A DNA stretch of 56,412 nt from a virus (taxonomy: Duplodnaviria > Heunggongvirae > Uroviricota > Caudoviricetes), in the IMG/VR virus record IMGVR_UViG_2718218136_000004; one strand, written 5' to 3'. How positions within the stretch are numbered: position 1 is the stretch's first letter; every line of letters begins with the position of its first letter. A program made the translations under genes and the position numbers. The notes beneath the pieces were generated by a model. The model was not told the DNA's origin, ran no database searches, and worked only from the letters and a program-made list of their open reading frames with translations. Shown piece by piece: positions 1-24,639 of this stretch.

Positions 1-1026
1 TTACTTGGAATATTTTCTTGGAATATTTTCAGGTAACGGGACATCAAGTGTTGGTGAAACTTTAACCTTCCTGTCATAGATTAGCACTTGCCCTTCGGTT
101 TTGTGACCAGAGAAAAGTTGCTTATCCCGGCTGCTTCCTTCATAGTCTGAAATTCCTTTCGCCTTCAGATCATGAAAGGTGAAGTCGGTTAAAATACCTG
201 AAATTTTTCCAGCACGATTTCTTGCATCTACCCACATTTCGTTAAAGCCTTTGTACATATATCGGTTGCCGTATTGATTGCTGATCACATAGGCAGATTT
301 TGGTAACTGTTTTGCTTTTTCGATCGCTGCCTGTAATCGTGGACTCCATGCTTTTATCTGTTTTTTTCCGGTTTTCCCTTGCTGGATGAATATCCCGTCG
401 TTTCCAATCTGTTCCCATTTCAGCGATAACACATCGGAAACCCTCGCTGCACACAGATAGGCAATTTCCATTGCGATAAAAACAGGAAGAGGTGCAACGC
501 TTAATACTGCCTGGTATTCTTTGTCGGTTACATATCGTTCGCGGTTTTTGGCCTTGAATTTACTTACACCTGCACATGGGTTAGCCTTCACGTACCCTCG
601 CTCATACCCCCAACTGTAAACACGGGACATACTGCTTTTTTCATGGTTGGCTTGCGTTTTACTCTGCTCCCCTCTTTTGTCCATGTATCGACGGATGTGT
701 TCTGGTTTTATGGAATCCGCTGGTACCTTACCGAATACGGCAAGCAACTTTTTTTGATGTTGCAGATAATCTTTTTGTGTTCTTGGACTAAGGTCACTGT
801 AATAGGCGCTGGCGAGGAATTTTTCCCACAAGCGACCGAATGTCATTGCACGATCGCGATTATTTACAGTTTCCTCATACTTTTTCCATAAAGCAGCTAA
901 ACCATCCTTGATGGCGGTTAGTGTGACAGATTCTCTGGATGTTGGTTTCCATACATAACTATATTTATTTGGGTATACATTTGGAGGTAATTTTTCGTGT
1001 TCAGGATTTTTCCTTCGTCTTCCCAT
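1..1026 (-). CDS. int: Prophage tyrosine integrase (lambda-family site-specific recombinase)
   Basis: 341-aa ORF, complete (stop TAA at 1-3); terminal position in a lambdoid prophage, adjacent excisionase-like gene; C-terminal region with conserved His/Arg/Tyr-type catalytic context. Confidence 0.85.
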   Translation of the reverse strand: MGRRRKNPEHEKLPPNVYPNKYSYVWKPTSRESVTLTAIKDGLAALWKKYEETVNNRDRAMTFGRLWEKFLASAYYSDLSPRTQKDYLQHQKKLLAVFGKVPADSIKPEHIRRYMDKRGEQSKTQANHEKSSMSRVYSWGYERGYVKANPCAGVSKFKAKNRERYVTDKEYQAVLSVAPLPVFIAMEIAYLCAARVSDVLSLKWEQIGNDGIFIQQGKTGKKQIKAWSPRLQAAIEKAKQLPKSAYVISNQYGNRYMYKGFNEMWVDARNRAGKISGILTDFTFHDLKAKGISDYEGSSRDKQLFSGHKTEGQVLIYDRKVKVSPTLDVPLPENIPRKYSK

Positions 1027-1229
1027 CAGATCGCACCAAAATTCGGCTCTACCTCGCGTGGTGGTAAAGTTTTATTGCAGGTAAATAGATCCCGGCTGAC
1101 AATCGGTTTGCCACTACGATTGGTATAGAACGGAAGCCCGTTTTCCATTAACCATTTTCGCTGGTGGCTTGCATATTTGCAGCCCGTTAATATTAGCAAT
1201 TCATCTTCGGTTAAAAATAAGCTGCTCAT
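1026..1229 (-). CDS. Excisionase-like small protein (DUF4224-like) next to int
   Basis: 67-aa ORF directly upstream of int with 1-nt overlap; sequence MSSLFLTEDELLILTG... resembles DUF4224 proteins typically paired with phage integrases. Confidence 0.5.
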   Translation of the reverse strand: MSSLFLTEDELLILTGCKYASHQRKWLMENGLPFYTNRSGKPIVSRDLFTCNKTLPPREVEPNFGAI

Positions 1230-1287: not shown

Positions 1288-3759
1288 TTAAAAATCAGCC
1301 TGACTCGGGATCAGTTTTTGCCAGATAGCTGAAACGTATTTTGCCTGGTAACGAGCGTCATCAAGTGCATTATGGCGCTCACCTTCGAATGGAATAGCCG
1401 TTCTGGCATCGAAGTCTATGGCTTTCCCCAGCTCAACGATTGTGCGTACATCGCGATCGTTGTAGTAACGCCACGGGCAGGGGATCCCCTGCCGTTCGTA
1501 TGAACGGCGCAAAATCGTGTTGTCGAAGTTGGCTCCATTTCCCCAGACCTGAACAAAAAATTCACCGGAGTTTTCGTCGATAAATTCCCGCAATTGTAAC
1601 AGTGCATCATCTAACGGGATTTCATCGGTCATAATGGCAGATTGCGCTTCGCGTGATTGCTTAAGCCACCATTTAATGGTGTCCCGATCAATGACTCCGC
1701 CAGCAGTTTCCAGATCGATAGTCTTACTAAATTCCGGTCCCATATCTCCGGTTTGCGGATCGAAAAATATTGCACCTATTGAGATGATCGGGGCATCAGG
1801 ATTTTTTCCCATGGTTTCAAGGTCGATCATTAGATGGTCACACGTTCTGCTGGTGGATGTGATTTCTTGATGACCGTTCACCTTAATTGAGTGAGCTGCC
1901 GTCTCGCCAGTTTCATTATCGCTATCGTGATGCCGATTGCCGCCAGTGTTCTCCTTGTGTGGATGTTCAGCGCCCTCCATTTCCTCCGGATCATCTTCCT
2001 GAACTTCAACCTGATACTCTTCATCGAATGTTTCCTGGTATGTTGCGTCGCCCATCACCGCGCCACAATCAGGGCAGTTGCCGCCGCCGGTCTGACCGCA
2101 GGCGGTGCAGACTTTTTCCACTTCCTGTTGCGCCACTGGTTCAGGCTGTTTCGTTTCTGGCTCGTTTTGTAACGCATTTGGGCTGTTTTGTTCCGCTTTT
2201 TGGTAGTTCCGTTCCGATTCATGCTGGTTCTGGTTTACAGAATCGCGGGTCTGGATCCCCTTAACCCATTTCGGATCATTCGGGTCGCTAATCCCTGCAA
2301 CAAATTCTCCGCGAGAGGCAGCAAGCAACTTATCGGCGTCAGGCTGGCTGATATTGGCTGCCTGCATAATTTTGTTTACTTCGTCAGCGGTAACTTTTAC
2401 CGGCCCTGGTTGTGCGGTCGTGTCAGATGCACCAGTATTTTGTTGTGAACCTGAGTATGTACCGTTTTTGCGGGCGAAATATTCTTCTTTCGTGATTTCA
2501 GTAGCCCCGGCAGCCAGTGCCTTATCCAGACCAGAAAGTTTGTTTGCGCGACCGTATTTTTCGCCATCCTTGTCGGTGAAGAGGAAGTAGAACGGCCCCT
2601 CACGCTCTACAGATGGTTCGACTTCCACTTTGCATTCGGTTTTTTCGTTGTCCGGAATTGCCGTTTCCACTGCATCAGTTTCTGGTACTGGCGACGAGAG
2701 AGTATCAGTTGCGCTCTGATTTCTTCCTTCATCTTCAAACACGCCCTTTGTAGTCAGGTATTCAGTAATGTATTTGTTCAGTGCCACAGGGTCTTTGTGA
2801 ATGTCGATCGGACGTTCACGGACAAGGCCAAAAATAGTCCGGCGGTCGTAGCGAAGGGCATCAGGCTGTTTGCGCATTGATGCCGAGATACGCTTCCAGT
2901 CTTCGCGGTCGTTGTCGATAACTTCATTTTTTGCCCAGCGATGGATGCTGCCGTCAATGTTTCCGGCATCCACATCACCAGGCCAGAGAGCGTAGGCCAG
3001 TTCGTCATCCAGTGTTTTCCATGTCTGCTTGTATTCGCGATGAATGGCAGCAATGACCAGGCTGATTTTTCCTGTTGAATTTTCAGTGTGCTGTTGATTG
3101 GCTCTGGCGCGGGCGAGATCAACAACAGACGTGTATTTTCCGGCTTCCTTGCGTTCACCTTCGCGACGTTTTTTCCAGATGCGCATCTCTGCCTGAATTT
3201 CGGGCCATTTGGCACCAGGCTTACATTTATGCTTAACCCACCCGATGGCATGCAGCTTAAGCTCCGGATACATAGCGTTAACTTCTGGCATTTTCATCAA
3301 CGCTTCAACGATATGTCCGTCGAATGTTGCCATGTCTTCCTGCAACAATTCCTGCGCGCTAATCACCATATCAACGGTGATGTTTTCACATGTGTCGAAC
3401 TTAACCATGACAGCGTTCTGTACTTCAGGGGCCAGCTTGTCAAAAGTGACGTTCATCGGATCTGATTCAGTCTCAACCGGGACAAAGGAAGCAGACTCCT
3501 CATCCCAGCGGTTTTCCTGCATATATTCAGCATCCCAGGAATCGAGGGCAGGGCGGGGTATACCGGGTTTATCCTCGCAAACAAGAAATTTATAAGCGCA
3601 GTCCTGAGCAGCCGGATAATGTTCCAGGAATTGCCAGTGAAATTTTGCGCGGGCGCGACGTTCATCACCGGCTTCAATGGCAGTGGCTACAGCGACTGCA
3701 CCTTCTTCCTTTATTGCCTGTTCGTCCGGAATGGCGGCGCAAATAAAGACTTTACTCAT
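1288..3759 (-). CDS. Large prophage exonuclease, C-terminal DEDDh (DnaQ-like) 3'-5' exonuclease domain
   Basis: 823-aa ORF; C-terminal motifs IDLETMG (Exo I-like D-x-E) and HNALDDA (Exo III-like H-x4-D); position matches the exonuclease gene between int/xis and the dicB operon in Qin/Rac-type prophages. Confidence 0.7.
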   Translation of the reverse strand: MSKVFICAAIPDEQAIKEEGAVAVATAIEAGDERRARAKFHWQFLEHYPAAQDCAYKFLVCEDKPGIPRPALDSWDAEYMQENRWDEESASFVPVETESDPMNVTFDKLAPEVQNAVMVKFDTCENITVDMVISAQELLQEDMATFDGHIVEALMKMPEVNAMYPELKLHAIGWVKHKCKPGAKWPEIQAEMRIWKKRREGERKEAGKYTSVVDLARARANQQHTENSTGKISLVIAAIHREYKQTWKTLDDELAYALWPGDVDAGNIDGSIHRWAKNEVIDNDREDWKRISASMRKQPDALRYDRRTIFGLVRERPIDIHKDPVALNKYITEYLTTKGVFEDEGRNQSATDTLSSPVPETDAVETAIPDNEKTECKVEVEPSVEREGPFYFLFTDKDGEKYGRANKLSGLDKALAAGATEITKEEYFARKNGTYSGSQQNTGASDTTAQPGPVKVTADEVNKIMQAANISQPDADKLLAASRGEFVAGISDPNDPKWVKGIQTRDSVNQNQHESERNYQKAEQNSPNALQNEPETKQPEPVAQQEVEKVCTACGQTGGGNCPDCGAVMGDATYQETFDEEYQVEVQEDDPEEMEGAEHPHKENTGGNRHHDSDNETGETAAHSIKVNGHQEITSTSRTCDHLMIDLETMGKNPDAPIISIGAIFFDPQTGDMGPEFSKTIDLETAGGVIDRDTIKWWLKQSREAQSAIMTDEIPLDDALLQLREFIDENSGEFFVQVWGNGANFDNTILRRSYERQGIPCPWRYYNDRDVRTIVELGKAIDFDARTAIPFEGERHNALDDARYQAKYVSAIWQKLIPSQADF

Positions 3760-3851
3760 TTTGTTTTACCTCATTACAGATTTAAGGGTGAACAAATCCC
3801 TGCCATTTCTGGCATATAAGAATGAAATCGGATGTTTATTACGGAACTGTT

Positions 3852-4043
3852 TTAAAGACCTGCCGGGATTTCGTTATTATCCTGGTGAATAACTTTATCG
3901 ACCGGGTAACAGTTACCGGGAATTTTCTGTTCGGTTGCTGCAGTCACACACTCCTGCATTGTCCTGTGAACACTGACTGCAATATCAACTGGCTCTCCGG
4001 AAACAAGAAAAAATGTCAGAACAAGTGCAAATGCTGTATTCAT
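3852..4043 (-). CDS. ydfD: YdfD-like small protein with N-terminal hydrophobic segment (Qin-type lysis/toxic peptide)
   Basis: 63-aa ORF MNTAFALVLTFFLVSGEPVDIAVSVHRTMQEC...; start overlaps dicB stop (ATGA); matches recalled K-12 YdfD. Confidence 0.6.
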   Translation of the reverse strand: MNTAFALVLTFFLVSGEPVDIAVSVHRTMQECVTAATEQKIPGNCYPVDKVIHQDNNEIPAGL

Positions 4044-4228
4044 TGCCAGCATCCTTTTTGTATCGGACGTAAACGGGCCAGCATTGAAAGAATGCATATT
4101 TTATTTAATAACTCCCGTTCGTGTTTTCTCTTGTTAATGGCATCTTCAGTAAATACAGGGTTACTGATAGTGACACCAATTTCAAAACAACCTTCAGACG
4201 TATTAACGTTTGGTAATAACGTTTCCAT
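4040..4228 (-). CDS. dicB: Cell division inhibitor DicB
   Basis: 62-aa ORF METLLPNVNTSEGCFEIGVTISNPVFTEDAINKRK... with GAGGA RBS 7 nt upstream; near-identical to recalled K-12 DicB; lies downstream of dicF as in Qin. Confidence 0.75.
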   Translation of the reverse strand: METLLPNVNTSEGCFEIGVTISNPVFTEDAINKRKHERELLNKICILSMLARLRPIQKGCWQ

Positions 4229-4402
4229 TATCGCGTCCTCAACAATGAATTTTGTGATGCAGTGCCTGGTGCCTCCAGGTGACGTTAACCAGTTAACAAT
4301 TAACGCCGGATACAGAGAATCCACCCATAACACTGTTTTTGGTTTTAACTGTTCCGCGTGCGCTTAGCCGCATTCACCGCATCACAAAATTCACTTTAAA
4401 AA

Positions 4403-4455
4403 GGGCGGCAGAGCAGTCACGGAGTAAAACTGATACCGCCAAACGTCACCAGAAA
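4403..4455 (-). ncRNA. dicF: DicF small regulatory RNA (ftsZ-targeting sRNA of Qin-type prophages)
   Basis: Minus-strand sequence TTTCTGGTGACGTTTGGCGGTATCAGTTTTACTCCGTGACTGCTCTGCCGCCC followed by a T-run matches the recalled 53-nt DicF; located between ydfC-like and dicB as in the K-12 dicB operon. Confidence 0.65.
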
Positions 4456-4796
4456 ATTGATAACAGAGGGCGTTGCAGCGGGGTTGTCACTTAAGCGTAT
4501 GGTCAACCTGACAACCCGGTGTCCTCAACGGGGGAAGGAATAACCCCGCCATACTTACCGCCGCGCCATTTCGCGGATTGCCACAACCGGAAGCGCACGG
4601 TCGACGAAAATTTAACGACAGGCTATCTATGAACCAGCTACCTCGCCGTGCGCTTTCGCGTTATGGTCTGACTTTTCAGGGAAATATCCTTTCAGTAAAC
4701 TGTCAGTGCCGGATGCTCACCCGTGTCCGGCGCACGCACTCCACCTCACCCGTGGAGAACTCCTTAATTACCAACCTTAGCTTCGTTGGTTAGCTA

Positions 4797-5015
4797 TTAA
4801 CGCGGGTATGTAATCATTCTGGCAATGCTTAATGCCGCTGCTTTTTCCAGATTGGTGATATCCTGCTCCAGAGCGGACAGATTTTCAGCCTGCTTAGCCC
4901 TGGCTTCATTAGCCCATTTCAGATCCTGCGCTGCATTAATTTTCTGGCGCATCCACTCATAAAGTTCATCATCGGTATAGTCTGGCGCGATTATGACGGG
5001 TTCTCGTTTCTGCAT
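4797..5015 (-). CDS. ydfC: YdfC-like hypothetical protein (dicB operon)
   Basis: 72-aa ORF MQKREPVIIAPDYTDDELYEWMRQKINAAQDLKW...; operon position matches K-12 ydfC. Confidence 0.55.
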   Translation of the reverse strand: MQKREPVIIAPDYTDDELYEWMRQKINAAQDLKWANEARAKQAENLSALEQDITNLEKAAALSIARMITYPR

Positions 5016-5041
5016 ACTGATTCCTCGCGGTGCTACTTCGC

Positions 5042-5172
5042 TTATCAGCCGTTAGATTTTGCCGAGCTGGAAAGCGCCTGTTTAAACTCACTGAAGCTGA
5101 GAGCTTCTTCGCCTTCGGCAAGGTCTTCGAAGTATTCTTCGTAAGCCTTTTCCATGATTGTGTCGAAATCCA
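5042..5172 (-). CDS. ydfB: YdfB-like small acidic protein
   Basis: 42-aa ORF MDFDTIMEKAYEEYFEDLAEGEEALSFSEFKQALSSSAKSNG read from the minus strand; below the 60-aa cutoff of the ORF track; position between ydfA-like and ydfC-like. Confidence 0.45.
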
Positions 5173-5174
5173 TA

Positions 5175-5330
5175 TCACTCACCTGAGTTTCTTTCCAGCC
5201 AGCGACGGGCACCATTTTCGGTTTTAAACGTTTTGCTTTTGGTATACGTCATCGCGGTGAACGTGCCGTCCTGGTTGGGAAACACGCCGTACACCAGAGA
5301 TTCGTTGTTGCCAAGATCGATAGTATCCAT
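5175..5330 (-). CDS. ydfA: YdfA-like small protein (first gene of leftward dicB-type operon)
   Basis: Internal start MDTIDLGNNESLVYGVFPNQDGTF... (51 aa) with GAGG RBS; the longer 78-aa ORF extension has no RBS support. Confidence 0.5.
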   Translation of the reverse strand: MDTIDLGNNESLVYGVFPNQDGTFTAMTYTKSKTFKTENGARRWLERNSGE

Positions 5331-5514
5331 GCTGACCTCATTTCCCCTTAACGCTGGGGTAGCGGAACAAAAACCTGCTGCATAGTTATTAAAGTTGAAC
5401 CCTGCCGTCATGTTCTTACGCCTCGGGCTGGCTACTTAACCCCTGACCACTGCCTGGTAACTCGAAGTATTGCCCTGCATTCTGTGGGGCGGGGTGGGTT
5501 GGTATGAAAAGAAG

Positions 5515-5555
5515 GATACCCATAGGTATTTAAAAAGTAAATACCCATGGGTAAC
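5515..5555. promoter_or_regulatory. Operator-like palindromes (GATACCCATAGGTAT / ATACCCATGGGTA) downstream of the repressor gene, candidate OL/PL region for the leftward dicB-type operon
   Basis: Two near-palindromic sites sharing the half-site ATACCCA, which is also present in the sites between the repressor and cro-like gene. Confidence 0.4.
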
Positions 5556-5595: not shown

Positions 5596-6015
5596 CTATG
5601 ATGCGTTTTGTGCTTTCTTTTTACGGATTTCTTCGTAGATCATATTGTAATACTGTTTTTTCTCTTCAAGAGTTTTTAATAAGTTATCCGCTTCACTTTC
5701 TGGCAGTTCGTCTAAGAGATCTAAAAAAATACGTTGTCGTGGCGTTAGAACCCTTGTTTCATAACTGGAGGCTGTGTTCGTTGATGATGAAACGATACCA
5801 TCCATCCATCCCCGGGGTAACCCAAAGGACTCTTCGATAATCTCCACCATATCATCAGCGATCCGTTTTTTTCCCTTTTTCCCCTCTGGGTACAACATTC
5901 TTGATACATAAGAAGGCTCGCGCCCGATCTTTCTGGCCACGTTAACCGCTTTACCATCGCATTTCTCATCACGAATTTTGATGAGTTGCTGTCGTCTAAA
6001 TTCATATTTGTCCAT
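5596..6015 (-). CDS. Prophage repressor, DicA/RacR-like (N-terminal HTH, no peptidase domain)
   Basis: 139-aa ORF; HTH segment KAVNVARKIGREPSYVSRML; C-terminal LLDELPESEADNLL resembles the DicA C-terminal LPESEQD motif; divergent from a Cro-like gene. Confidence 0.7.
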   Translation of the reverse strand: MDKYEFRRQQLIKIRDEKCDGKAVNVARKIGREPSYVSRMLYPEGKKGKKRIADDMVEIIEESFGLPRGWMDGIVSSSTNTASSYETRVLTPRQRIFLDLLDELPESEADNLLKTLEEKKQYYNMIYEEIRKKKAQNAS

Positions 6016-6115: not shown

Positions 6116-6397
6116 ATGGAAGAATTAAGAATATTTCTCAATTCTCTTTCGTCAGATGAACAGCGTATGTTTGCATGCGAGTGTGGTACCAGCATCGGTT
6201 ATCTAAGAAAGGCATTGAGTAAAGGTCAAGTGTTAGGGGCATCGTTATGCGTCCTTATTGAGCGAGCCAGTAATGGTGAAGTTACACGTCAGCAACTAAG
6301 GCCTTTTGATTGGATGAATATTTGGCCCGAGCTGGAAGATACCAAAACGTTAACACAACCACTTTCTAGGAGCTTGATTCATGAAAATCAAGCATGA
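6116..6397 (+). CDS. Cro-like HTH regulator, YdaS family
   Basis: 93-aa ORF; CECGTSIGYLRKALSKGQ...ASLCVLIERASNGEVTRQQLRPFDW matches the YdaS/Cro-like family; followed by a YdaT-like gene. Confidence 0.7.
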   Translation: MEELRIFLNSLSSDEQRMFACECGTSIGYLRKALSKGQVLGASLCVLIERASNGEVTRQQLRPFDWMNIWPELEDTKTLTQPLSRSLIHENQA

Positions 6398-6806
6398 ACA
6401 CATCCGCATGGCGATGAATGCCTGGGCGCATCCGGACGGTGAAAAAGTTCCGGCAGCTGAAATAACCAGGGCTTATTTTGAACTGGGTATGACGTTCCCA
6501 GAACTGTATGACGACAGCCATCCGGAAGCCCTGGCTCGCAATACCCAGAAAATTTTCCGCTGGGTAGAGAAAGACACCCCTGATGCAGTTGAAAAAATTC
6601 AGGCGTTGTTACCAGCGATCGAAAAGGCAATGCCACCTTTGCTGGTGGCCAGAATGCGCAGCCACAGTTCAGCTTATTTTCGGGAGCTGGTGGAGACGCG
6701 GGAGCGACTGGTGAGAGACGCTGATGATTTTGTCGCAGTGGCAATCGCCGGTTTCAATCAGATGAACCGTGGTGGCCCGGCAGGAAATGCTGTGGCAGTA
6801 CATTGA
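6381..6806 (+). CDS. YdaT-like protein (CII-like regulator, formerly annotated as toxin YdaT)
   Basis: 141-aa ORF starting MKIKHEHI..., same start and length as recalled Rac YdaT; overlaps the upstream ydaS-like stop. Confidence 0.7.
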   Translation: MKIKHEHIRMAMNAWAHPDGEKVPAAEITRAYFELGMTFPELYDDSHPEALARNTQKIFRWVEKDTPDAVEKIQALLPAIEKAMPPLLVARMRSHSSAYFRELVETRERLVRDADDFVAVAIAGFNQMNRGGPAGNAVAVH

Positions 6807-10961: not shown

Positions 10962-11172
10962 AAACGGTTTGCGGGAAAAGGAGAGTTAAGTAGAATTGCA
11001 GCGGGTGCTTGAGGCTATCTGTCTCAGGCATGAACACCAAAAGGCAGATAGAGAAAAGCCCCAGTTAACATTACGCGTCCGGCAAGACGCTTAACATTAA
11101 TCTGAGGCTCAATCTATGAACGGCAAATCTAGGTTAGCCTCTTACGTGCCGAAAGGCAAGGAGAAGCAGGCT

Positions 11173-11328
11173 ATGAAGCAGCAAAAGGCGATGTTAGTCG
11201 CCCTGATCGTCATCTGTATTACCGTCATTGTGACGGCACTGGTAACGAGGAAAGACCTCTGCGAGGTACGAATCCGAACCGGCCAGACGGAGGTCGCTGT
11301 CTTCACAGCTTACGAACCTGAGGAGTAA
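11173..11328 (+). CDS. hokD: Hok/Gef-family type I toxin, HokD (RelF)-like
   Basis: MKQQKAMLVALIVICITVIVTALVTRKDLCEVRIRTGQTEVAVFTAYEPEE is near-identical to recalled K-12 HokD; AAGGAG RBS; upstream in-frame extension to 11116. Confidence 0.8.
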   Translation: MKQQKAMLVALIVICITVIVTALVTRKDLCEVRIRTGQTEVAVFTAYEPEE

Positions 11329-11471
11329 GAGACCTGGCGGGGGAGAAATCCCTCGCCACCTCTGATGTGTCAGGCATCCTCAACGCACCCGCACTTAACC
11401 CGCTTCGGCGTTTTTTCCGTTGATTAACTCTAGTTATTAGAGAACCGAACTTTTATTGATGGGGCAGGGAG

Positions 11472-11864: not shown

Positions 11865-11993
11865 TGTATAGCGGGACGGTAAATTATTAGTGAAAACGCT
11901 GTAAACCCTATGGATTGAGTCAGGATTTAATCCGATAATTATTCTATCGTTCCTTTACAAGTCCGGCATATTACCTTCAGTTTGTTTTAGCAT

Positions 11994-12020
11994 ACCCGCT
12001 TCGGCGGGTTTTGTTTTTTT
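11994..12020 (+). terminator. Intrinsic terminator after the lipoprotein gene
   Basis: CCCGC-TTCG-GCGGG stem-loop followed by TTTTGTTTTTTT. Confidence 0.55.
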
Positions 12021-12371
12021 CTGGCATTCTGGTTTACAATACGCACGCCAGCCTGAACAACTGGCACCTGCTGCGCCAGCAGAGACAACCGATGGCGCAC
12101 GATACCAAATTACACAATTCTAATGATTCTGCCGTCTTTGCCAGCAGGCGCGGACGGCGTTTTCACGTATTCAAATCAGACTGGTTCCAGCATCCTCCAT
12201 GCACTGAAGAGCAGGCGGAATGGATAATTCAGTGTTACCGCAGGCGCGGATACGAGGTTAAGAAAGCCCTCAGCCTCGATTATCGTCACTGGATAATCTA
12301 TGTCAGGCTCCCTTATTCCGAACGCCCACCGCGCCCATCCCGCACATACCAGCAACGGATCTGGAGGTAAC

Positions 12372-13427
12372 GTGCGGATATTACTTCGACCTGTTCTGGT
12401 ACCGGAACTTGGGCTGGTGGTCCTTAGGCCGGGCCGTGAATCCATGCAAGTATTTCATAACCCTCGAGTGCTGGTGGAGCCTGAACCGAAAAGCATGCGT
12501 AATCTGCCGTCCGGGGTCGTTCCTGCCGTTCGCCAGCCGCTGGTGGAAGACAAAACATTGCTGCCGTTTTTCAGTAACGCACGGGTGATTCGTGCTGCTG
12601 GTGGTGCTGGTGCATTGTCTGACTGGCTGTTGCGCCATATTAAATCCTGCCAGTGGCCACACGGCGATTATCATCACAGCGAAACCGTCATTCACCGTTA
12701 TGGTACCGGCGCAATGGTGTTGTGCTGGCACTGCGACAACCAGCTGCGTGACCAGACATCCGAATCACTCGAGCAACTTGCTCATCAAAACCTGTCAGCA
12801 TGGATGATTGACGTCATCGGTCACGCAATAAGCGGTACGCAGGAGCGTGAATTATCTCTGGCTGAATTATCCTGGTGGGCGGTCCGCAATCAGGTGGCGG
12901 ACGCGCTACCGGAAGCGGTATTACGTCGTTCGCTGGGGTTGCGTGCGGAAAAAATCCGCTCAATGTACCGTGAAAGCGACATCGTACCGGGAGAGCAGAC
13001 CGCCACCAGCATACTGAAGCAGCGCACAAAAAATCTTGCGCCGCTGCCTCACGCCCACCAGCAAAACCCGCCACAGGAAAAGACGGTGGTCAGCATTGCC
13101 GTTGATCCGGAGTCACCGGCTCAGTATCTCCAGCGCCAGAAACCACAACGGGAAGAGATGCCTGTATACACGCGTTGGGTAAAAACGCAGAAATGCATGA
13201 CGTGCGGTAATCAGGCAGATGATCCGCATCACATCATTGGTCATGGACTGGGAGGGATGGGAACAAAGGCTGATGATTTGTTTGTTATTCCTCTGTGCCG
13301 TAAATGTCATAACGAACTGCACGCCGGGGTAAAAGATTTTGAAGAAAAACACGGCAGCCAGCTGTTGTTGCTGATTCGTTTTTTAATGCACGCGAGAAAT
13401 TCGGGTGTCCTGAAGTGGAAAGCATGA
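12372..13427 (+). CDS. DUF968/NinG-like protein with C-terminal HNH-like zinc-binding motif
   Basis: C-terminal CMTCG...HHIIGHGLGG...CRKCHNELH; probable GTG start at 12372 after a GGAGG RBS. Confidence 0.5.
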   Translation: MRILLRPVLVPELGLVVLRPGRESMQVFHNPRVLVEPEPKSMRNLPSGVVPAVRQPLVEDKTLLPFFSNARVIRAAGGAGALSDWLLRHIKSCQWPHGDYHHSETVIHRYGTGAMVLCWHCDNQLRDQTSESLEQLAHQNLSAWMIDVIGHAISGTQERELSLAELSWWAVRNQVADALPEAVLRRSLGLRAEKIRSMYRESDIVPGEQTATSILKQRTKNLAPLPHAHQQNPPQEKTVVSIAVDPESPAQYLQRQKPQREEMPVYTRWVKTQKCMTCGNQADDPHHIIGHGLGGMGTKADDLFVIPLCRKCHNELHAGVKDFEEKHGSQLLLLIRFLMHARNSGVLKWKA

Positions 13428-13793
13428 ATGACTGAACGCATAGAATTTGTTTTGCCTTACCCGCCGACGGTGAATACCTACTGGCGACGTCATGGCAATA
13501 CGTATTTCATCTCGGAAGCCGGAAAGCGTTATCGCCGTGATGTGGCGCTAATTGTTCGCCAGCAGCGGCTGAAATTAAACCTGTCCGGAAGGCTGGCGAT
13601 AAAGATTATTGCAGAGCCACCGGATAAGCGCCGCCGCGACCTGGACAATATCCTGAAGGCACCACTGGATGCGCTGACGCATGCCGGACTTCTCATAGAC
13701 GACGAGCAGTTTGATGAAATCAATATTGTGCGCGGACTGCCTGTTCCTGGTGGTCGGCTGGGGATAAAAATCACAGAACTGGAGTGCGCATGA
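13428..13793 (+). CDS. rusA: Holliday junction resolvase RusA
   Basis: 121 aa; LPYPPTVNTYWR...RRRDLDNILKAPLDALT...GGRLGIKITELE matches the RusA family. Confidence 0.85.
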   Translation: MTERIEFVLPYPPTVNTYWRRHGNTYFISEAGKRYRRDVALIVRQQRLKLNLSGRLAIKIIAEPPDKRRRDLDNILKAPLDALTHAGLLIDDEQFDEINIVRGLPVPGGRLGIKITELECA

Positions 13794-14479
13794 ATAACCA
13801 GTATTTACAGTTTGTGCGTGAGCAGCTCATTATCGCTACCGCTGATTTGAGTGGGGCAACAAAAGGTCAGCTTGAAGCCTGGCAGGAGAATGCCATGTTT
13901 GATACAGGGCGTTACAGGCGTAAAAAAATCCGGTACCGCGATGAAGTGACTGGAAGAATGATAACGCGGGATAGTCCACCGATACCGGGAAAACAATCAC
14001 TGGCGAAAGGCTCATCAATTGCTCTGGTAAGTCAGGTTGAGTTTTCGACATCATCATGGCGACGGGCAGTTCTGTCTCTTGAAGAACATCATAAAGCCTG
14101 GTTGTTGTGGTGTTACAGCGGGATTATTTGTTGGGAATATCAGATCGCGATAACACAGTGGGCGTGGAATGAATTTAATACTCAATCCGGTACCAGAAAA
14201 ATTGCAGGGAAAACGCAGGAACGCCTGAAAAAATTAATCTGGCTGGCGGCGCAGGCAGTAAAAGCAGAACTTTTTGGTGGGGAAGGTTATGAATACCAGG
14301 AGCTGGCATTACTGGCGGGAGTGACAACTAAAAACTGGTCCAAAACATTTACTCGTCACTGGGTTGCAATGAAACACATTTTTCACCGACTTGATAGTGA
14401 GGCTTTATTGTTTGTAATGAGAACACGTTCAAAACAAAAGGCGGCATTTTCAAAGCAAAGTGTTGCAAAAGTAGATTGA
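13790..14479 (+). CDS. Putative late-gene antiterminator Q-like protein
   Basis: ~230-aa ORF immediately upstream of a promoter-plus-terminator unit and the tRNA/lysis region, the canonical Q position; family assignment by position more than sequence. Confidence 0.45.
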   Translation: MNNQYLQFVREQLIIATADLSGATKGQLEAWQENAMFDTGRYRRKKIRYRDEVTGRMITRDSPPIPGKQSLAKGSSIALVSQVEFSTSSWRRAVLSLEEHHKAWLLWCYSGIICWEYQIAITQWAWNEFNTQSGTRKIAGKTQERLKKLIWLAAQAVKAELFGGEGYEYQELALLAGVTTKNWSKTFTRHWVAMKHIFHRLDSEALLFVMRTRSKQKAAFSKQSVAKVD

Positions 14480-14491
14480 AAGGCATATATT
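14463..14491 (+). promoter_or_regulatory. Candidate late promoter pR' (TTGCAA-17 bp-TATATT)
   Basis: Sigma70-like -35/-10 with 17-bp spacing just after the Q-like gene and ~55 nt upstream of an intrinsic terminator. Confidence 0.4.
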
Positions 14492-14543
14492 TCATGCAAA
14501 TCTGATATTTTGCCGATTTTGTACGTGATGGCAAAAGCAAACA

Positions 14544-14570
14544 AAACCCGCCCACAAGCGGGTTTTTTTG
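14544..14570 (+). terminator. Intrinsic terminator (tR'-like)
   Basis: CCCGC-CCACAA-GCGGG stem-loop followed by TTTTTTT. Confidence 0.6.
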
Positions 14571-14689
14571 TGCCACTTATCTCGGATAGAAATGGTGAAT
14601 GCGCTGGTGGAGGAAGTAAGGGTAATTTTTAACTAGGTGATTCTTGAATGCTTGCAACATTTATTTCGTAACGTTATTATCCTGCGCCC

Positions 14690-14765
14690 GGCCCTTTAGC
14701 TCAGTGGTGAGAGCGAGCGACTCATAATCGCCAGGTCGCTGGTTCAAATCCAGCAAGGGCCACCA
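14690..14765 (+). tRNA. tRNA with CAU anticodon, tRNA-Ile2 (ileX/ileZ-like) or Met
   Basis: 76 nt; 7-bp acceptor stem GGCCCTT/AAGGGCC, D-arm with GG, anticodon loop CTCATAA, T-loop TTCAAAT, 3' CCA. Confidence 0.8.
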
Positions 14766-14766
14766 A

Positions 14767-14843
14767 CCGTCACCAGTTCATCAGGAAAGAGCGTCAACCC
14801 TTTAAGTTGAGTGTGCGAAGTTCGAGTCCCCGGTGGCGGTCCA
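14767..14843 (+). tRNA. tRNA-like sequence, non-canonical (possible pseudo-tRNA)
   Basis: Acceptor stem 7/7 paired (one G-U), D-stem GTTC/GAGC, anticodon stem TCAAC/GTTGA with loop CCTTTAA (C at position 33), T-loop TTCGAGT but T-stem does not pair. Confidence 0.3.
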
Positions 14844-14845
14844 GT

Positions 14846-14921
<76 letters not shown>

Positions 14922-14924
14922 TAT

Positions 14925-14999
<75 letters not shown>

Positions 15000-15202
15000 G
15001 TTAGAGTCTTTCAGTCTGCGATGATGGGAAATCCCGGAGTGACTGAAAGACGTTTAAGTTATGAATGATCGCCTTTTTTTGCAAAATTGCTGTGCAGAAA
15101 TACTAACCTTCGGGCAGGCGATCATTCATAAGCACTCTGCTTTTATTCCGATTAACTGTGGGTGGTTTGTTGGATAGAGTGCTTTCCTTACTGTATATAT
15201 TG

Positions 15203-15230
15203 TTTCGCCCGCTTTTGCGGGCTTTTCTTT
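15203..15230 (+). terminator. Stem-loop plus T-run upstream of the lysis cassette
   Basis: CGCCCGC-TTTT-GCGGGC followed by TTTTCTTTT. Confidence 0.4.
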
Positions 15231-15291
15231 TCAAATCCCTTTCATTTCTCAGTGTAAAACTACGCCATCCGTTATTTGCGGAGGTGAGGCT

Positions 15292-15507
15292 ATGAAATCC
15301 ATGGACAAAATTTCAACGGGCATTGCCTATGGCACCTCCGCAGGCAGTGCTGGCTACTGGTTTTTACAGTGGCTTGATCAGGTCAGTCCGTCACAGTGGG
15401 CTGCGATTGGTGTGCTGGGGAGTCTGGTTCTGGGCTTCCTGACTTATCTGACAAATCTGTACTTCAAAATCAGAGAAGACAAGCGTAAGGCTGCACGGGG
15501 AGAGTAA
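15292..15507 (+). CDS. Class II holin (pinholin), phage 21 S21-like, dual-start motif
   Basis: [63 protein letters not shown]... matches recalled S21; Met1/Met4 dual start; GGAGGTGAGG RBS. Confidence 0.85.
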
Positions 15508-15511
15508 TTCA

Positions 15512-15862
15512 ATGACTCAAAACTATGAACTGATTGTGAAAGGGATCCGCAATTTTGAGAATAAAGTTACGGTAACTTTAGCGTTACGGGACAAAAAACG
15601 CTTTGACGGCGAAATTTTTGACCTGGACATCTCGCTGGACCGTGTTGAAGGTGCCGCGCTGGAGTTTTATGAGGCAGCAGCCAGAAGGAGCATCAGACAG
15701 GTCTTCCTGGATGTTGCTGCCGGGTTATGTGAAGGGGATGAGCAGTCGCCGGAAAAGCGCCCCGTAATTTTAGAGGCGCAGAATGTGTGGATAACCTGCA
15801 AAGGAAAGCTACCAGGAAGAATTACTGGTTCTCTGAAGACTCCTCCGGAATCACAACCTTAA
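15512..15862 (+). CDS. Hypothetical protein inserted between holin and endolysin
   Basis: 116-aa ORF with GGGGAG RBS; no recognised family. Confidence 0.45.
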   Translation: MTQNYELIVKGIRNFENKVTVTLALRDKKRFDGEIFDLDISLDRVEGAALEFYEAAARRSIRQVFLDVAAGLCEGDEQSPEKRPVILEAQNVWITCKGKLPGRITGSLKTPPESQP

Positions 15863-15925
15863 GTCACTGACCGGAACAGATAAACCTGTCCGTGGGCAGA
15901 AACCGATAAATCCTGATAAATATCC

Positions 15926-16459
15926 ATGAACGCAAAAATCAGATACGGCCTGTCGGCTGCCGTTCTGGCACTGATTGCCGTCGGTGCGCCCGCGCCTGAT
16001 ATTCTCGACCAGTTTCTGGATGAAAAAGAAGGTAACCACACAACGGCATACCGCGATGGTTCCGGCATCTGGACCATCTGTCGGGGTGCCACGATGGTGG
16101 ATGGAAAACCCGTTTTTCCCGGTATGAAACTGTCGAAGGAAAAATGCGACCAGGTCAACGCCATTGAGCGTGATAAGGCGCTGGCATGGGTGGAGCGCAA
16201 TATTAAAGTACCACTGACCGAACCACAGAAAGCGGGTATAGCGTCATTCTGTCCCTATAACATTGGCCCCGGTAAGTGTTTCCCGTCGACGTTTTATAAG
16301 CGGCTGAATGCCGGTGATCGTAAGGGCGCATGCGAGGCGATTCGCTGGTGGATAAAAGATGGTGGGCGCGATTGCCGCATACGTTCAAATAACTGCTATG
16401 GACAGGTTATTCGTCGTGACCAGGAAAGCGCATTAGCCTGTTGGGGGATAGATCAGTGA
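15926..16459 (+). CDS. SAR endolysin (signal-anchor-release lysozyme)
   Basis: N-terminal hydrophobic Gly/Ala-rich SAR-like segment [16 protein letters not shown] followed by lysozyme-like E...D...T region; position after pinholin. Confidence 0.75.
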
Positions 16460-16923
16460 GCAGAGTCGCAGCGATTATTTATACTCTGGTTATCTGCACC
16501 ATCGTCTGCCTGTCGTGGGCGGTCAATCATTACCGTGATAACGCCATCGCCTACAAAGAACAGCGTGATAAAAAAGTCAGTGAGCTGAAGCAGGCGACTG
16601 CCACCATCGCTGACATGCAACAGCGTCAGCGTGATGTTGCTGCGCTCGATGCAAAGTACTCGAGAGAATTAGCCAATGCGAAAGCTGAAAATGAAACTCT
16701 GCGCGCTGATGTTGCCGCTGGTCGTAAGCGCCTGCGGGTCAATGCCAGTTGCTCCGCAGCCGTGCGTGAAGCCACCGGACCCACCAGCGTGGATAATGCA
16801 ACCAGCCCCCGACTGGCAGACACCGCTGAACGGGATTATTTCACCCTCAGAGAACGGTTGATGACGATGCAGAAGCAACTGGAAGGGGCACAGCTATACA
16901 TTCGTGAGCAATGTCTCAGATAA
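16456..16923 (+). CDS. Rz: Spanin inner-membrane subunit Rz
   Basis: [38 protein letters not shown]... closely matches lambda Rz; GTG start overlaps endolysin stop. Confidence 0.85.
16676..16861 (+). CDS. Rz1: Spanin outer-membrane lipoprotein Rz1, embedded in Rz in the +1 frame
   Basis: [22 protein letters not shown]...[30 protein letters not shown] matches lambda Rz1. Confidence 0.85.
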
Positions 16924-17101
16924 AAAACGGCCAAGGATAATCCGCTAAAGATTCGCCGGTGGCGAAAGAGAGCCAAGGTGCCAACCTACGCTATTACTTA
17001 TGATAATGCAACAGACGAAGCGGGACATTCAGGTGCATAACAAAGCGTGGCAGGTGAACTGCAAACCTGAAAAGGCGCAAAAATCTGCGCCAGAATGGTA
17101 G

Positions 17102-17587
17102 TTATTTTGTGGTTTTGAAAAGTTTCATGTACTGATTGATAGGTTTTCCTGAGTAAGAATCTGTCCCTGGCTCAGGAGTATCAGATAAAACTTTTGCAGC
17201 TAATTTGTTGGAGGCTTGATTACCAACCCCGACAATAGCCTCTACATAGAATTCATTGAAGGAATTTCTAAATCCGTATTGCATTTCTTCAATGCTGGCG
17301 ATGAGAAGTTGAGTACCGATGCCTTGCGCTTTATATTCATCGGCTACTGCATAGCCAACGCCAAAGCATGGTTTACCTTCAACAAACTCTGCAGGGACAT
17401 ATATAGCAACACCTTTAACATTTTCTCCTTCAAAGAATGCATAAGTAAACCGTGGTGTACCCTCTGCATCATCCAAAAGCACCTTCATATTTGGGTGAAC
17501 TATGCATGGTGAAGGCTTAATCAGACCATTAGAAAAGGCGTATTGAAAACTAATTAATGAGTCTGTTGGATCAACGAGTTCTGGCAT
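17102..17587 (-). CDS. GNAT-family acetyltransferase-like moron
   Basis: 161-aa ORF on the opposite strand in an AT-rich island; segment AVADEYKAQGIGTQLL resembles the GNAT acetyl-CoA binding motif. Confidence 0.55.
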   Translation of the reverse strand: MPELVDPTDSLISFQYAFSNGLIKPSPCIVHPNMKVLLDDAEGTPRFTYAFFEGENVKGVAIYVPAEFVEGKPCFGVGYAVADEYKAQGIGTQLLIASIEEMQYGFRNSFNEFYVEAIVGVGNQASNKLAAKVLSDTPEPGTDSYSGKPINQYMKLFKTTK

Positions 17588-17831
17588 TTTGAGTCCTATG
17601 TATTTTGATATAAGCGATTCAACATACTACTTTCTTACGTTTAATTCTTTAACATTAACGAGCCAGGATACGAAATTTTGAAAAAGAGTAAAGTTTTTAA
17701 TAATTCATTCAAAGCATATCGCATGTGCACATCTAAGAAAGGCTTTCAGCTGTGAGCCTGGGTAAACCGTAAACTTTCGGCGACTCTGCCGTGCGACAGG
17801 TTCACGTCTAACATGTCTAAAAGGAAGAGTT

Positions 17832-18032
17832 ATGAAGTTTCAGGTCGCTAAACTGTATCGTGGTAAACATTTCGCAGGGTATGGGATTGCAGTTGATGGT
17901 GAGTTACTGGAAGGGCAGCTTTCCGCCAGGACAGAGTCACGCGGAGGCGAGCCACCAACAGTCACTGTGACTTTCAGACTGACAGCAGAACATATCGAGA
18001 ATCAGCCCGTCATTCAACTGAACAGGGGGTGA
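17832..18032 (+). CDS. Hypothetical small protein
   Basis: 66-aa ORF with AAGGAAGAG RBS. Confidence 0.4.
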   Translation: MKFQVAKLYRGKHFAGYGIAVDGELLEGQLSARTESRGGEPPTVTVTFRLTAEHIENQPVIQLNRG

Positions 18033-18039
18033 GATATTT

Positions 18040-18390
18040 ATGCCATCACGAATCCCACGCGCCTGCCGTAAGCGTGGATGTGCAGGTACAACCACAGACA
18101 GTTCTGGTTACTGCGATAAACATCGTGGCGAAGGATGGGTACAGCATCAACGCGGACTGAGCCGCCACCAGCGTGGCTATGGCTCGAAATGGGATGCCAT
18201 ACGTGCGCGCATACTGAAGCGTGATAATCATCTGTGTCAGAACTGCCTGCGCAATGGGAGAGCCGTTGAAGCCAGAACTGTGGACCACATCATTCCGAAA
18301 GCTCATGGTGGCACGGATGCAGACAGTAACCTGCAGAGTCTGTGCTGGCCCTGTCATAAAGCAAAAACAGCGCGCGAACGCATCAATTGA
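18040..18390 (+). CDS. HNH endonuclease associated with the packaging module
   Basis: Cys-rich zinc finger plus DHIIPKAHGG...N...LCWPCH HNH motif; directly upstream of terS. Confidence 0.8.
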   Translation: MPSRIPRACRKRGCAGTTTDSSGYCDKHRGEGWVQHQRGLSRHQRGYGSKWDAIRARILKRDNHLCQNCLRNGRAVEARTVDHIIPKAHGGTDADSNLQSLCWPCHKAKTARERIN

Positions 18391-18538
18391 TAACAGTTCC
18401 CATCTGTAGGGGAGGGGCGGGTCAAATCTCTGCAACCCTGGCTGCTCAGTACCGCCGCCTGACCCTTCCTCACATCGCCGCAGGTTCGAAAACTTTTTTT
18501 TGGAAATGTGAACAAACGATTGATAGGTAAGACCGATT

Positions 18539-19021
18539 ATGTCAGGACCTCCGAAAACCCCGCCACGCCTGCATTTGATTCGAGGTAACCCCTCAAAGCG
18601 CCCCGTTAAAGACCACAAAAAAACCGCTAAAAAGGATGAAAAAGGTCTTCCTAAAATTCCGCAGCATTTAGGGGCTCAGGGGAAGTACTGGTTCAGGCGA
18701 ATGGCGGAAGAGCTGAATGCGGAAGGGATCATTTCTCAGCTTGATGCGCGTGCGCTCGAGCTGCTGGTGGAAGCCTACACCGAATATCGGCATCACTGCG
18801 AAACACTCGATGTTGAGGGGTATACCTACCGCACGGAAACGCAGAGCGGTGATGTACTGATTAAGGCGCACCCCGCGGCGGCAATGAAAGCGGATGCCTG
18901 GAAGCGGATCCGGGCAATGCTTGCAGAGTTTGGTATGTCACCGGCAAGCCGGGCTAAAGTAAATATCGCCGGACCGGATGATGTTGATCCGCTGGCGGAG
19001 CTTTTAAAAGCGAGAGACTGA
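18539..19021 (+). CDS. Terminase small subunit (P27 family)
   Basis: 160-aa ORF immediately upstream of and overlapping terL; similar architecture to the insert-encoded TerS. Confidence 0.75.
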   Translation: MSGPPKTPPRLHLIRGNPSKRPVKDHKKTAKKDEKGLPKIPQHLGAQGKYWFRRMAEELNAEGIISQLDARALELLVEAYTEYRHHCETLDVEGYTYRTETQSGDVLIKAHPAAAMKADAWKRIRAMLAEFGMSPASRAKVNIAGPDDVDPLAELLKARD

Positions 19022-20048: not shown

Positions 20049-20178
20049 GAAAGTAACATCACGCCGTAACAACAGTGCGACCTGTCCTGATTTTTTTAGT
20101 AACCAAATGAAAGAAAAAGTTTTTTTTCTTGTTCGTCGTTTTTGTTTTTTCTGGAAGGTTCTGGCTGTTTTCATCATT

Positions 20179-20200
20179 TGTGTATTGCACTGTGTATTGC
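20179..20200. repeat. Tandem TGTGTATTGC repeats near attL, candidate integrase arm-type binding sites
   Basis: TGTGTATTGCACTGTGTATTGC just upstream of int; near-identical GTGTATTGCGCTGTGTATTGC near attR. Confidence 0.45.
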
Positions 20201-20220
20201 AAAAACGGGTTATAAATCAC

Positions 20221-21444: not shown

Positions 21445-21475
21445 AGAACTTGAAAATGATGAAACAATCGACAGG

Positions 21476-21643
21476 ATGATTAAGGAAGATGAATGTGCAT
21501 GGTTAACCGCTCTTGGCAGGAGACACAGATCGTTACTTGAAAAGGAAGGAAAATTTCCACGAAAAATATGTATTGGCCCACAAACAAAAGTCTGGCGCTT
21601 ATCTGAGGTGCTGGAATGGGTAAAAGGTGAATGGAAACCCTGA
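21476..21643 (+). CDS. AlpA-family transcriptional regulator
   Basis: WLTALGRRHRSLLEKEGKFPRKICIGPQTKVWRLSEVLEWV fits the AlpA HTH pattern; start uncertain (alternative ATGs at 21410 and 21422). Confidence 0.55.
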   Translation: MIKEDECAWLTALGRRHRSLLEKEGKFPRKICIGPQTKVWRLSEVLEWVKGEWKP

Positions 21644-21666
21644 GTTAAATTAAATGAGATATAATC

Positions 21667-21690
21667 AACCCGTCTTTTGGCGGGTTTTTT
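21667..21690 (+). terminator. Intrinsic terminator after first alpA-like gene
   Basis: ACCCGTC-TTTT-GGCGGGT followed by T-run. Confidence 0.5.
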
Positions 21691-21706
21691 TATAGGTGAT
21701 ATTTTT

Positions 21707-21985: not shown

Positions 21986-21995
21986 TTACCGACAA

Positions 21996-22024: not shown

Positions 22025-22042
22025 TATGTGAGGTAAAAAGCA

Positions 22043-24633: not shown

Positions 24634-24639
24634 AAAAAC

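Follow-up and report, generated by a model that had tools for sequence, protein, structure and literature searches.

The DNA studied here is a 56,412-nt window of IMG/VR record IMGVR_UViG_2718218136_000004 (Caudoviricetes), and all coordinates are window positions. On the minus strand it carries six elements in the order ydfA-ydfB-ydfC-dicF-dicB-ydfD, with all open reading frames (ORFs) intact. The bounds 3852..5330 are exact, 3852 being the ydfD stop and 5330 the ydfA ATG. Alignment with K-12 and the ORF translations bear out the original prediction that this leftward early operon corresponds gene for gene to the K-12 dicB operon. The dicBF operon of the cryptic Qin prophage (b1571-b1576) shows the same gene order, the same spacers and an identical DicF, and the 2376 bp of window 5368..2993 agree with K-12 Qin at 96.6% of nucleotides.

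The first gene, ydfA (5175..5330, minus strand; 51 aa, DUF1391), matches K-12 at 154 of 156 nucleotides and its protein is identical to K-12 YdfA. It is followed on the same strand by ydfB (5045..5173; 42 aa; 127/129 nt), with the single substitution G17D, and by ydfC (4797..5015; 72 aa; 217/219 nt), whose protein is again identical. Between ydfC and dicF lies a conserved, non-coding spacer (4456..4796, minus strand; 333/341 nt) that probably represents precursor RNA ahead of the 5' processing site of DicF, by analogy with the role described in PMC5069750. A second spacer (4229..4402, minus strand; 172/174 nt) separates dicF from dicB (4040..4228, minus strand; 62 aa; 176/189 nt). The DicB family models are matched over their full length, with 127.4 bits for PF05358 (cut-off 27) and 132.7 bits for NF049927 (cut-off 100). 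The start of ydfD (3852..4043, minus strand; 63 aa, DUF1482; 186/192 nt) overlaps the dicB stop by 4 nt; its product differs in five residues from the K-12 orthologue, which bears a lysis-protein annotation. Pfam and NCBIfam confirmed the family matches of YdfA and YdfD with scores well above the curated cut-offs. The earlier remark that several of these genes fall below 60 aa holds for ydfA and ydfB, while dicB and ydfD lie just above that length.

The small RNA gene dicF (4403..4455, minus strand) is 53 nt long and, as predicted, is the K-12 sequence, with 53 of 53 positions identical to b1574 where the number of matches expected by chance is 0. It matches the full Rfam model RF00039 with 76.7 bits (gathering score 48, E=3e-15). 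Its 3' hairpin and the U-tract at 4398-4402 constitute an intrinsic terminator, and the predicted fold has a free energy of -22.2 kcal/mol (z = -2.84). A permissive Rfam search of 3700-6200 for other known RNAs, such as an antitermination element, returned only DicF, a full-length but sub-threshold STnc100 match (4196..4405; 34.7 bits vs a gathering score of 47) and a spurious miRNA match on the operator palindromes. The alignment against Qin, which had been suggested as a check, was clean for DicF and less so for DicB, in which 7 of 62 residues are changed (89% identical).

Downstream of the operon, an 823-aa protein is encoded at 1288..3759 on the minus strand. Its first 256 residues match the ydfE translation at 248 positions (97%), and the match stops at the IS2 breakpoint, which supports the suggestion that this ORF is the intact version of the truncated K-12 pseudogene ydfE. 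Qin has the same downstream reading frame, which is full length here and cut by IS2 in K-12. The C-terminus is an Rv2179c-like DEDD-type 3'-5' exoribonuclease domain (PF16473, 227 bits, aa 642-813), and the middle region resembles that of RecE (NF007259, 283 bits, cut-off 1269, covering model positions 271-601 only). The RecE/ExoVIII annotation found in some phage records is ruled out by this domain content, given the PF16473 C-terminus and the below-cut-off NF007259 score. A small DUF4224 protein identified by Pfam (1026..1229, minus strand) occupies the excisionase position, followed by a 341-aa tyrosine integrase (1..1026, minus strand).

Outside the operon the resemblance to Qin is limited. 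Comparison of the window with the whole of Qin by blastn yielded only mosaic patches, namely the operon with ydfE, hokD, a DUF968 gene, lysis genes and the tail-fibre end. The window integrase has no nucleotide similarity to intQ (blastn), and the integration sites differ as well: Qin lies at ydfJ/rspB, whereas in matching genomes the present element adjoins tRNA-Ser/mtfA. With a different integrase, a different site and no collinear backbone, the element as a whole is evidently not a Qin prophage. The label 'Qin-type' therefore fits the operon only, since neither the repressor/cro region nor the integrase is Qin-like and no Rem homologue was seen among the ORFs of 8850-12400.

The immunity region differs in the same way. 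As in Qin, a repressor gene precedes the operon and a cro-like gene diverges from it, but homology to K-12 Qin does not reach beyond 39 nt upstream of ydfA. Promoter/operator region and repressor/cro pair thus belong to another immunity type. The repressor gene, an ORF at 5596..6015 on the minus strand, is co-oriented with the operon and encodes a 139-aa protein analogous in position to CI and DicA. Its identity to K-12 DicA is 33%, over the C-terminal 46 aa only; it scores 23.9 bits against the NCBIfam DicA subfamily (cut-off 101), and a Pfam search gave neither a match nor a recognizable helix-turn-helix domain. Divergent from it on the plus strand lies a Cro/YdaS-like regulator (6116..6397; Pfam YdaS_toxin, 25.8 bits, below the cut-off) and, downstream of that, a YdaT-like gene (6381..6806; Pfam YdaT_toxin, 39.6 bits); both names are also those given by PGAP in near-identical genomes. 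The repressor/cro pair is thus not dicA/dicC.

A repeat search revealed putative TACCCAYRGGTA operators flanking the 139-aa repressor gene on both sides, comparable to OL and OR of lambda. Upstream of ydfA, the putative OL-like pair (5517..5553) consists of two 12-bp palindromes, TACCCATAGGTA (5517-5528) and TACCCATGGGTA (5542-5553), spaced 25 bp apart, and the same motif recurs at 6052-6063 and 6076-6087 between the repressor and cro-like genes. From this operator layout, the early-left promoter of the operon probably overlaps the OL-like pair. Its position is an inference, because a scan for sigma-70 consensus promoters returned nothing above threshold at the operators or the expected position, with hits no more frequent than in shuffled sequence. 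The ORFs of 8850-12400 include no homologue of K-12 Rem, the window contains no LexA box (CTGT-N8-ACAG), and no N-like antiterminator was identified. Control by DicA, DicC and Rem is apparently not a property of this locus, which counts against Qin immunity and not against a dicBF operon. What is known of regulation by DicA and Rem in K-12 should accordingly not be carried over to the present prophage.

The operon itself is common: matches were obtained in 4767 of 5426 complete E. coli genomes and in 60 phage records. In the phages Tritos (OV696610), mEp460_ev081 (LR597641), vB_EcoS-689R5, vB_EcoM-606R7 and PhiR42_1 it shows 96-98% identity across 87-95% of the query and likewise sits between the repressor and exo-xis-int genes; the Tritos record explicitly annotates DicF. 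These carriers each possess an immunity cassette of their own, and the junction with Tritos is found some 165 nt upstream of ydfA. In the structural genes, the vB_Eco carriers are 96-99% identical to the window, and a near-identical structural module occurs together with the same operon in vB_EcoM-606R7 (99.3%), vB_EcoS-640R1 and vB_EcoS-689R5. A functional phage carrying both dicB and dicF was already in print in 2023 (PMC10448788). The novelty implied for an operon attached to intact phage modules consequently falls away: the operon is real but ordinary, known from most E. coli genomes and several sequenced phages.

Overall, we are highly confident that the locus is a bona fide, undamaged dicBF operon serving as the early-left (PL-equivalent) operon of an E. 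coli lambdoid siphovirus prophage. This identification is supported by the exact DicF sequence and its Rfam match, the terminator fold, the identity to Qin with intact ORFs and the family matches. The operator motif on both sides of the repressor, the phage records with the same operon and the layout, in which repressor, operon, exonuclease, xis-like gene and integrase are all co-oriented, lend further support, and no result speaks against it. Sequence identity, gene order, family membership and operator layout are matters of direct observation here.

Whether the surrounding prophage is alive bears on whom the operon serves. The element had been described as apparently complete, and integrase, replication, Q, lysis, head and tail modules are indeed present, but terL is split and the window includes neither attL nor attR. 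The prophage terL is interrupted at 20048/20049, with an N-terminal part at 19021..20048 and a C-terminal part from about 35497 to 36226, which overlap on the Pfam profile. Pfam domains and junction sequences identify the insertion, outside the operon, as a 15,448-bp capsid-forming, helper-embedded satellite of the PICI type (20049..35496, plus strand). Its genes run from int-AlpA through a Bro-N zone with isrK/C4 RNAs and a zone with DUF927 primase, SSB and iterons to a late zone with capsid, protease, portal, connectors, HNH, TerS and TerL; neither tail nor lysis genes were found within 20049..35496. HE-PICIs (Tommasini, Mageeney and Williams 2023, PMC10111431) and cf-PICIs likewise lie inside a late prophage gene, co-oriented with it, and share the four-zone organization, so the insertion is in all likelihood a helper-embedded PICI of the kind described in 2023. 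It is not a new phenomenon, as PMC10111431 already lists the terL-cognate sites A:Terminase_1:245 and 246, with a 16-kb element from E. coli among the entries. The satellite junction occurs in 35 genomes and the uninterrupted site in about 900; the records of Tritos, mEp460_ev081, vB_EcoS-689R5, vB_EcoM-606R7 and PhiR42_1 lack a satellite embedded in terL.

The split terL lends some weight to the reading that dicBF is a domesticated module, retained by the host for its own benefit alone in a defective prophage, as in K-12. With terL interrupted by 15.4 kb and the integrase damaged, such a prophage would make no virions. An integrase of identical sequence is called 'frameshifted' by PGAP in strains FDN-4 and E14033, the window has neither att site, and in 2016 the literature held dicBF to survive in defective prophages only (PMC5069750). 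Against this, a 14-nt imperfect direct repeat (AATTTTTTTACCAA / AATATTCTTACCAA) borders the insertion, and joining the terL parts in silico at the repeat restores the reading frame and recreates the sequence of strain FDN-4, in which the same prophage has an empty site and an intact, 585-aa terL. Precise excision after induction with restoration of the late gene has been shown for a different HE-PICI (PMC10111431). The integrase lesion, a 13-nt tandem duplication at the 3' end that replaces the last few residues, affects only residues past the catalytic-tyrosine motif. All other modules are intact, and sequenced phage records contain near-identical ones. We therefore consider a purely host-serving relic unlikely, while any prediction of inducibility must allow for the satellite inside terL.

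A second alternative concerns DicB, whose gene has diverged further than the rest of the operon (93% nucleotide identity vs 98-100% for its neighbors). Its substitutions relative to K-12 (K2E, Q36H, V47L, L55P, M56I, P57Q and A61W) gather near the C-terminus, and L55P, M56I, P57Q and A61W could have altered or abolished its function, leaving an operon that acts through DicF only or through other partners; this is very improbable, since the full-length family scores are far above the cut-offs and 781 complete-genome records, O157:H7 among them, carry the allele at 99% identity or more. On these records a rare or decaying allele was rejected; they fit a maintained, functional DicB variant.

For the undamaged early-left operon favored here, a course of action can be proposed from the K-12 system. 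In the lysogen, the adjacent 139-aa repressor would bind the paired TACCCAYRGGTA operators upstream of ydfA and keep the operon off, and derepression would yield a leftward polycistronic transcript. By homology to the K-12 experiments, RNase E would cut the DicF 5' end, whereas the 3' end would be set by the intrinsic terminator (giving the 53-nt form) or by RNase III acting on read-through RNA. Together with Hfq, DicF would pair with ftsZ mRNA, and also with xylR, pykA and manX, and block translation. Read-through transcripts would supply DicB, which is expected to bind MinC and bring it to septal ZipA, dismantling the Z ring, and to inhibit the ManYZ inner-membrane channel, excluding superinfecting lambda-like phages. 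They would also encode YdfD, lytic if overexpressed, the 823-aa exonuclease-domain protein, the excisionase-like protein and the integrase. The mechanism of DicF and DicB is that described for K-12 (PMC5069750, PMC6832061, PMC10448788), where division inhibition and processing by RNase E and RNase III were shown experimentally (PMC5069750, PMC10448788); repression through the operators, RNA processing and the division block are here predicted by homology and layout.

Kil of lambda and KilR of Rac are early-left inhibitors of the FtsZ ring, encoded in the repressor-controlled leftward early operon of lambdoid phages. As a host-division inhibitor, dicBF has the same genomic role and position, and we take it to be a functional analogue of lambda kil. 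No sequence relationship between them is known; dicBF relies on an sRNA together with a MinC-recruiting peptide, where lambda and Rac have one Kil protein.

A more speculative reading, to which we attach little probability, is that prophage, satellite and dicBF form one inducible unit, in which DicF/DicB of the helper and an Icd-like protein of the satellite, controlled by isrK/C4-type RNAs, would act as separate division inhibitors, each at its own stage of induction. The partner specificity of the common C-terminal DicB variant, for MinC, ZipA or ManYZ, might also differ from that of K-12 DicB. If true, the lysogen would lend itself naturally to studying the role of dicBF in a live phage, a question open since the 2016 paper (PMC5069750).

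The dicBF operon is among the most widespread prophage modules of E. coli, and research on its products goes back more than 30 years; its identification here has little importance beyond correct annotation. In practical terms, its value lies in two corrections: the immunity cassette is not dicA/dicC, and a satellite lies inside the terminase gene. Since the prophage is potentially live, its copy might in principle show what use dicBF is to the phage, with a division block during lytic growth, superinfection exclusion and metabolic rewiring as candidate roles, and functional carriers such as mEp460_ev081 and Tritos, among others, are already on hand for this question.

The dicBF operon (ydfA-ydfB-ydfC-dicF-dicB-ydfD) lies on the minus strand at 3852..5330, bounded exactly by the start codon of ydfA and the stop codon of ydfD, and a chance match is ruled out. 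The original prediction of a gene-for-gene match to the K-12 Qin dicB operon holds, as all six elements are in place and nearly identical when scored per feature on a three-way alignment of the window, K-12 Qin and Tritos, a sequenced Escherichia phage carrying the operon. Compared with K-12, ydfA (5175..5330, 51 aa) matches at 154/156 nt and ydfC (4797..5015, 72 aa) at 217/219 nt, both with identical proteins, while ydfB (5045..5173, 42 aa; 127/129 nt) has one substitution (G17D). The ydfC-dicF and dicF-dicB spacers match at 333/341 and 172/174 nt. The predicted 53-nt DicF sequence is there without change: dicF (4403..4455) matches at 53/53 nt, and the annotated K-12 sequence has a single, mismatch-free occurrence in the window (chance expectation 0). 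Rfam RF00039 covers 4403..4454 over the full model with 76.7 bits (gathering score 48), and the 3' half is predicted to fold into a GGCGG...CCGCC hairpin followed by UUUUU. DicB (4040..4228, 62 aa; 176/189 nt) differs at seven residues (K2E, Q36H, V47L, L55P, M56I, P57Q and A61W) and ydfD (3852..4043, 63 aa; 186/192 nt) at five. DicB, YdfA and YdfD score far above the curated Pfam and NCBIfam cut-offs.

An in-frame ATG upstream of ydfA (5331..5411) would give a 78-aa form, with an extension that Tritos shares and has annotated; homology to K-12 begins within this extension, and the 51-aa start is preceded by a good GAGG ribosome-binding site. The dicF-dicB spacer together with the dicB start (4196..4405, minus strand) gave a full-length, sub-threshold match to Rfam STnc100 (34.7 bits, gathering 47, E = 3e-5), a Salmonella sRNA candidate. 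This suggests that the STnc100 family was built on a homologous prophage region.

The likeness to Qin does not extend to immunity. The stretch homologous to K-12 reaches no further than 39 nt upstream of the ydfA ATG, which leaves the window without the K-12 dicBp/DicA operator region. The resident repressor gene (5596..6015, 139 aa) has the same orientation as the operon, as dicA does in K-12, but its product is only 33% identical to DicA, over the C-terminal 46 residues, and scores below the NCBIfam DicA cut-off. Beyond it lie a divergent Cro/YdaS-like gene (6116..6397) and a YdaT-like gene (Pfam). A repeat search found the 12-bp palindrome TACCCAYRGGTA at two places directly upstream of the operon, 5517-5528 and 5542-5553, and at least twice more, at 6052-6063 and 6076-6087, in the interval that separates the repressor gene from the cro-like one, the same layout on both sides of a repressor gene as lambda OL/OR. 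By this analogy we infer that dicBF would serve this phage as its early-left operon, kept off by the resident repressor. A consensus promoter scan picked out no promoter at the upstream TACCCAYRGGTA sites, and the search found no Rem-like antirepressor among the ORFs of 8850-12400 and no LexA box anywhere in the window. Tritos bears a third immunity cassette on the same operon with the junction at another position, which is ordinary lambdoid mosaicism.

In K-12, the DicF 5' end is produced by RNase E and the 3' end either by intrinsic termination, giving 53 nt, or by RNase III processing, giving 72 nt; together with Hfq, DicF represses ftsZ, xylR and pykA (PMC5069750). DicB brings MinC to ZipA at the septum and blocks ManYZ-dependent lambda DNA entry (PMC6832061); repression of the DicA type, spontaneous switching and induction by stress have also been described (PMC10448788). 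With DicF and the RNA around it unchanged or almost unchanged, the same processing and targets would be expected here.

Downstream of the operon, the 823-aa ORF (1288..3759) had been suggested as a possible intact version of the truncated ydfE. In agreement, its first 256 residues are 97% identical to the translated K-12 pseudogene, and nucleotide homology to Qin runs from 5368 to 2993, ending at the IS2E breakpoint in K-12. An identification as RecE was rejected: the ExoVIII equivalog reaches 283 bits (cut-off 1269) over the non-catalytic middle region only, and the C-terminus is instead an Rv2179c-like 3'-5' exoribonuclease domain (PF16473, 227 bits). Below the ORF, a DUF4224 protein occupies the excisionase position beside a 341-aa tyrosine integrase. 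At the integrase gene 3' end (4..29), a 13-nt tandem duplication (two copies of CTTGGAATATTTT) changes no more than the final residues and supplies the stop codon at 1..3; PGAP labels the identical sequence in strains FDN-4 and E14033 as a frameshifted pseudogene.

The prophage had also been called apparently complete. A replisome organiser, a DUF977 gene, hokD/sok, DUF968, RusA and Q genes and three tRNAs are indeed present, as are lysis (holin, YdfR, lysozyme, Rz), packaging, head and tail modules (HNH, TerS; portal, protease, HK97-type capsid; tape measure, J, side tail fibre), but terL is split by a 15,448-bp satellite, and neither prophage att site lies inside the window, whose right edge falls before the right attachment site. 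The terL N-part (19021..20048) holds the ATPase domain and nuclease-profile positions 2-72, the C-part (about 35497 to 36226) positions 64-283 (Pfam). In FDN-4 this prophage occupies the same chromosomal position, and there terL is intact (585 aa). The best description of the prophage is thus a full gene set with a satellite in terL, and its viability would depend on satellite excision.

Further features were noted in the prophage. The hokD/sok type I toxin-antitoxin (11003..11330; Rfam sok 112 bits) shares 97% identity with its Qin counterpart; relBE, which adjoins it in K-12, is absent. ARAGORN called the three tRNAs between the Q antiterminator and lysis genes (14690..14999) as Met (CAU), Thr (UGU) and Gly (UCC); PGAP calls the Met homologue Ile in related genomes, and FDN-4 has a fourth, tRNA-Lys. 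A 161-aa ORF in opposite orientation (17102..17587, minus) between the lysis cassette and HNH/terS, annotated as a GNAT N-acetyltransferase in FDN-4 and absent in strain 181.1, is a probable moron. Rfam IS009 matches with 214 bits at 56174..56372, within the gene for tail-fibre assembly, at the right window edge.

The satellite (20049..35496) is co-oriented with terL. FDN-4 aligns to 11911..20048 and 35483..47496 with a 14-nt overlap, which gives the att repeat as AATTTTTTTACCAA / AATATTCTTACCAA, an imperfect 14-nt repeat flanking the satellite (20035-20048 and 35483-35496). It opens with an integrase and two AlpA-family regulators; next come a Bro-N protein, isrK and C4-type RNAs and an Ash/Icd-like protein; a third group has DUF4222, a DUF927 primase, 21-nt iterons, SSB and PerC; and the last consists of a capsid protein, prohead protease, portal, head-completion protein, connector, HNH, TerS and TerL. 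No tail or lysis genes were found within the insertion. The satellite is of the helper-embedded PICI type, and its late zone is capsid-forming. Tommasini, Mageeney and Williams had already described this kind in 2023; they listed terL-cognate sites (A:Terminase_1:245 and 246), one 16-kb E. coli element among them, remarked on C4/isrK matches in such elements and, for another member, showed excision after induction that restored the late gene (PMC10111431). Among 5426 complete E. coli genomes, 35 have the satellite-terL junction and about 900 the uninterrupted site.

Since the satellite left end lacks an in-frame stop, the terL N-part and satellite integrase form one 807-aa ORF (19021..21444) with TerL ATPase, Arm-DNA-binding and integrase domains. 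The fusion is probably an accident of the junction, and helper late transcription could carry translation into the satellite int. The Ash/Icd-like gene (23450..24190), whose homologue PGAP names 'host cell division inhibitor Icd-like protein', contains or adjoins the isrK and C4-type RNAs (23759..23835 and 23857..23944), an arrangement like P1 c4-icd-ant and P4 CI/seqA; the composite element thus encodes a third division inhibitor candidate besides DicF and DicB. Three copies of TAACCCGCAAAA at 21-nt spacing (27179..27253) immediately downstream of the primase gene, with inverted copies at 27103-27132 and near 35042-35080, are probably the satellite replication origin.

Qin as a whole matches as a mosaic of the operon, ydfE, hokD, the DUF968 gene, lysis genes and the tail-fibre end; nucleotide comparison with Qin found no similarity to intQ in the window. 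The 1.84-kb operon region is matched in 4767 of 5426 complete E. coli genomes (2108 over at least 80% of its length), with 100% identity in one APEC strain, and in 60 phage records, including Tritos (DicF annotated), vB_EcoS-689R5, vB_EcoM-606R7, PhiR42_1 and mEp460_ev081; in some of these phages the structural genes are also 96-99% identical to those of the window. The DicB variant is common, with 781 records at least 99% identical. In 2016, zero DicB/DicF matches were reported in about 2,000 phage genomes and it was argued that the operon persists in defective prophages only (PMC5069750); by 2023 the same group had remarked on a functional phage with dicB and dicF (PMC10448788). The operon is therefore not new here and its biology is already known: its recognition was correct, and what changes is the immunity type and the completeness of the prophage that carries it.
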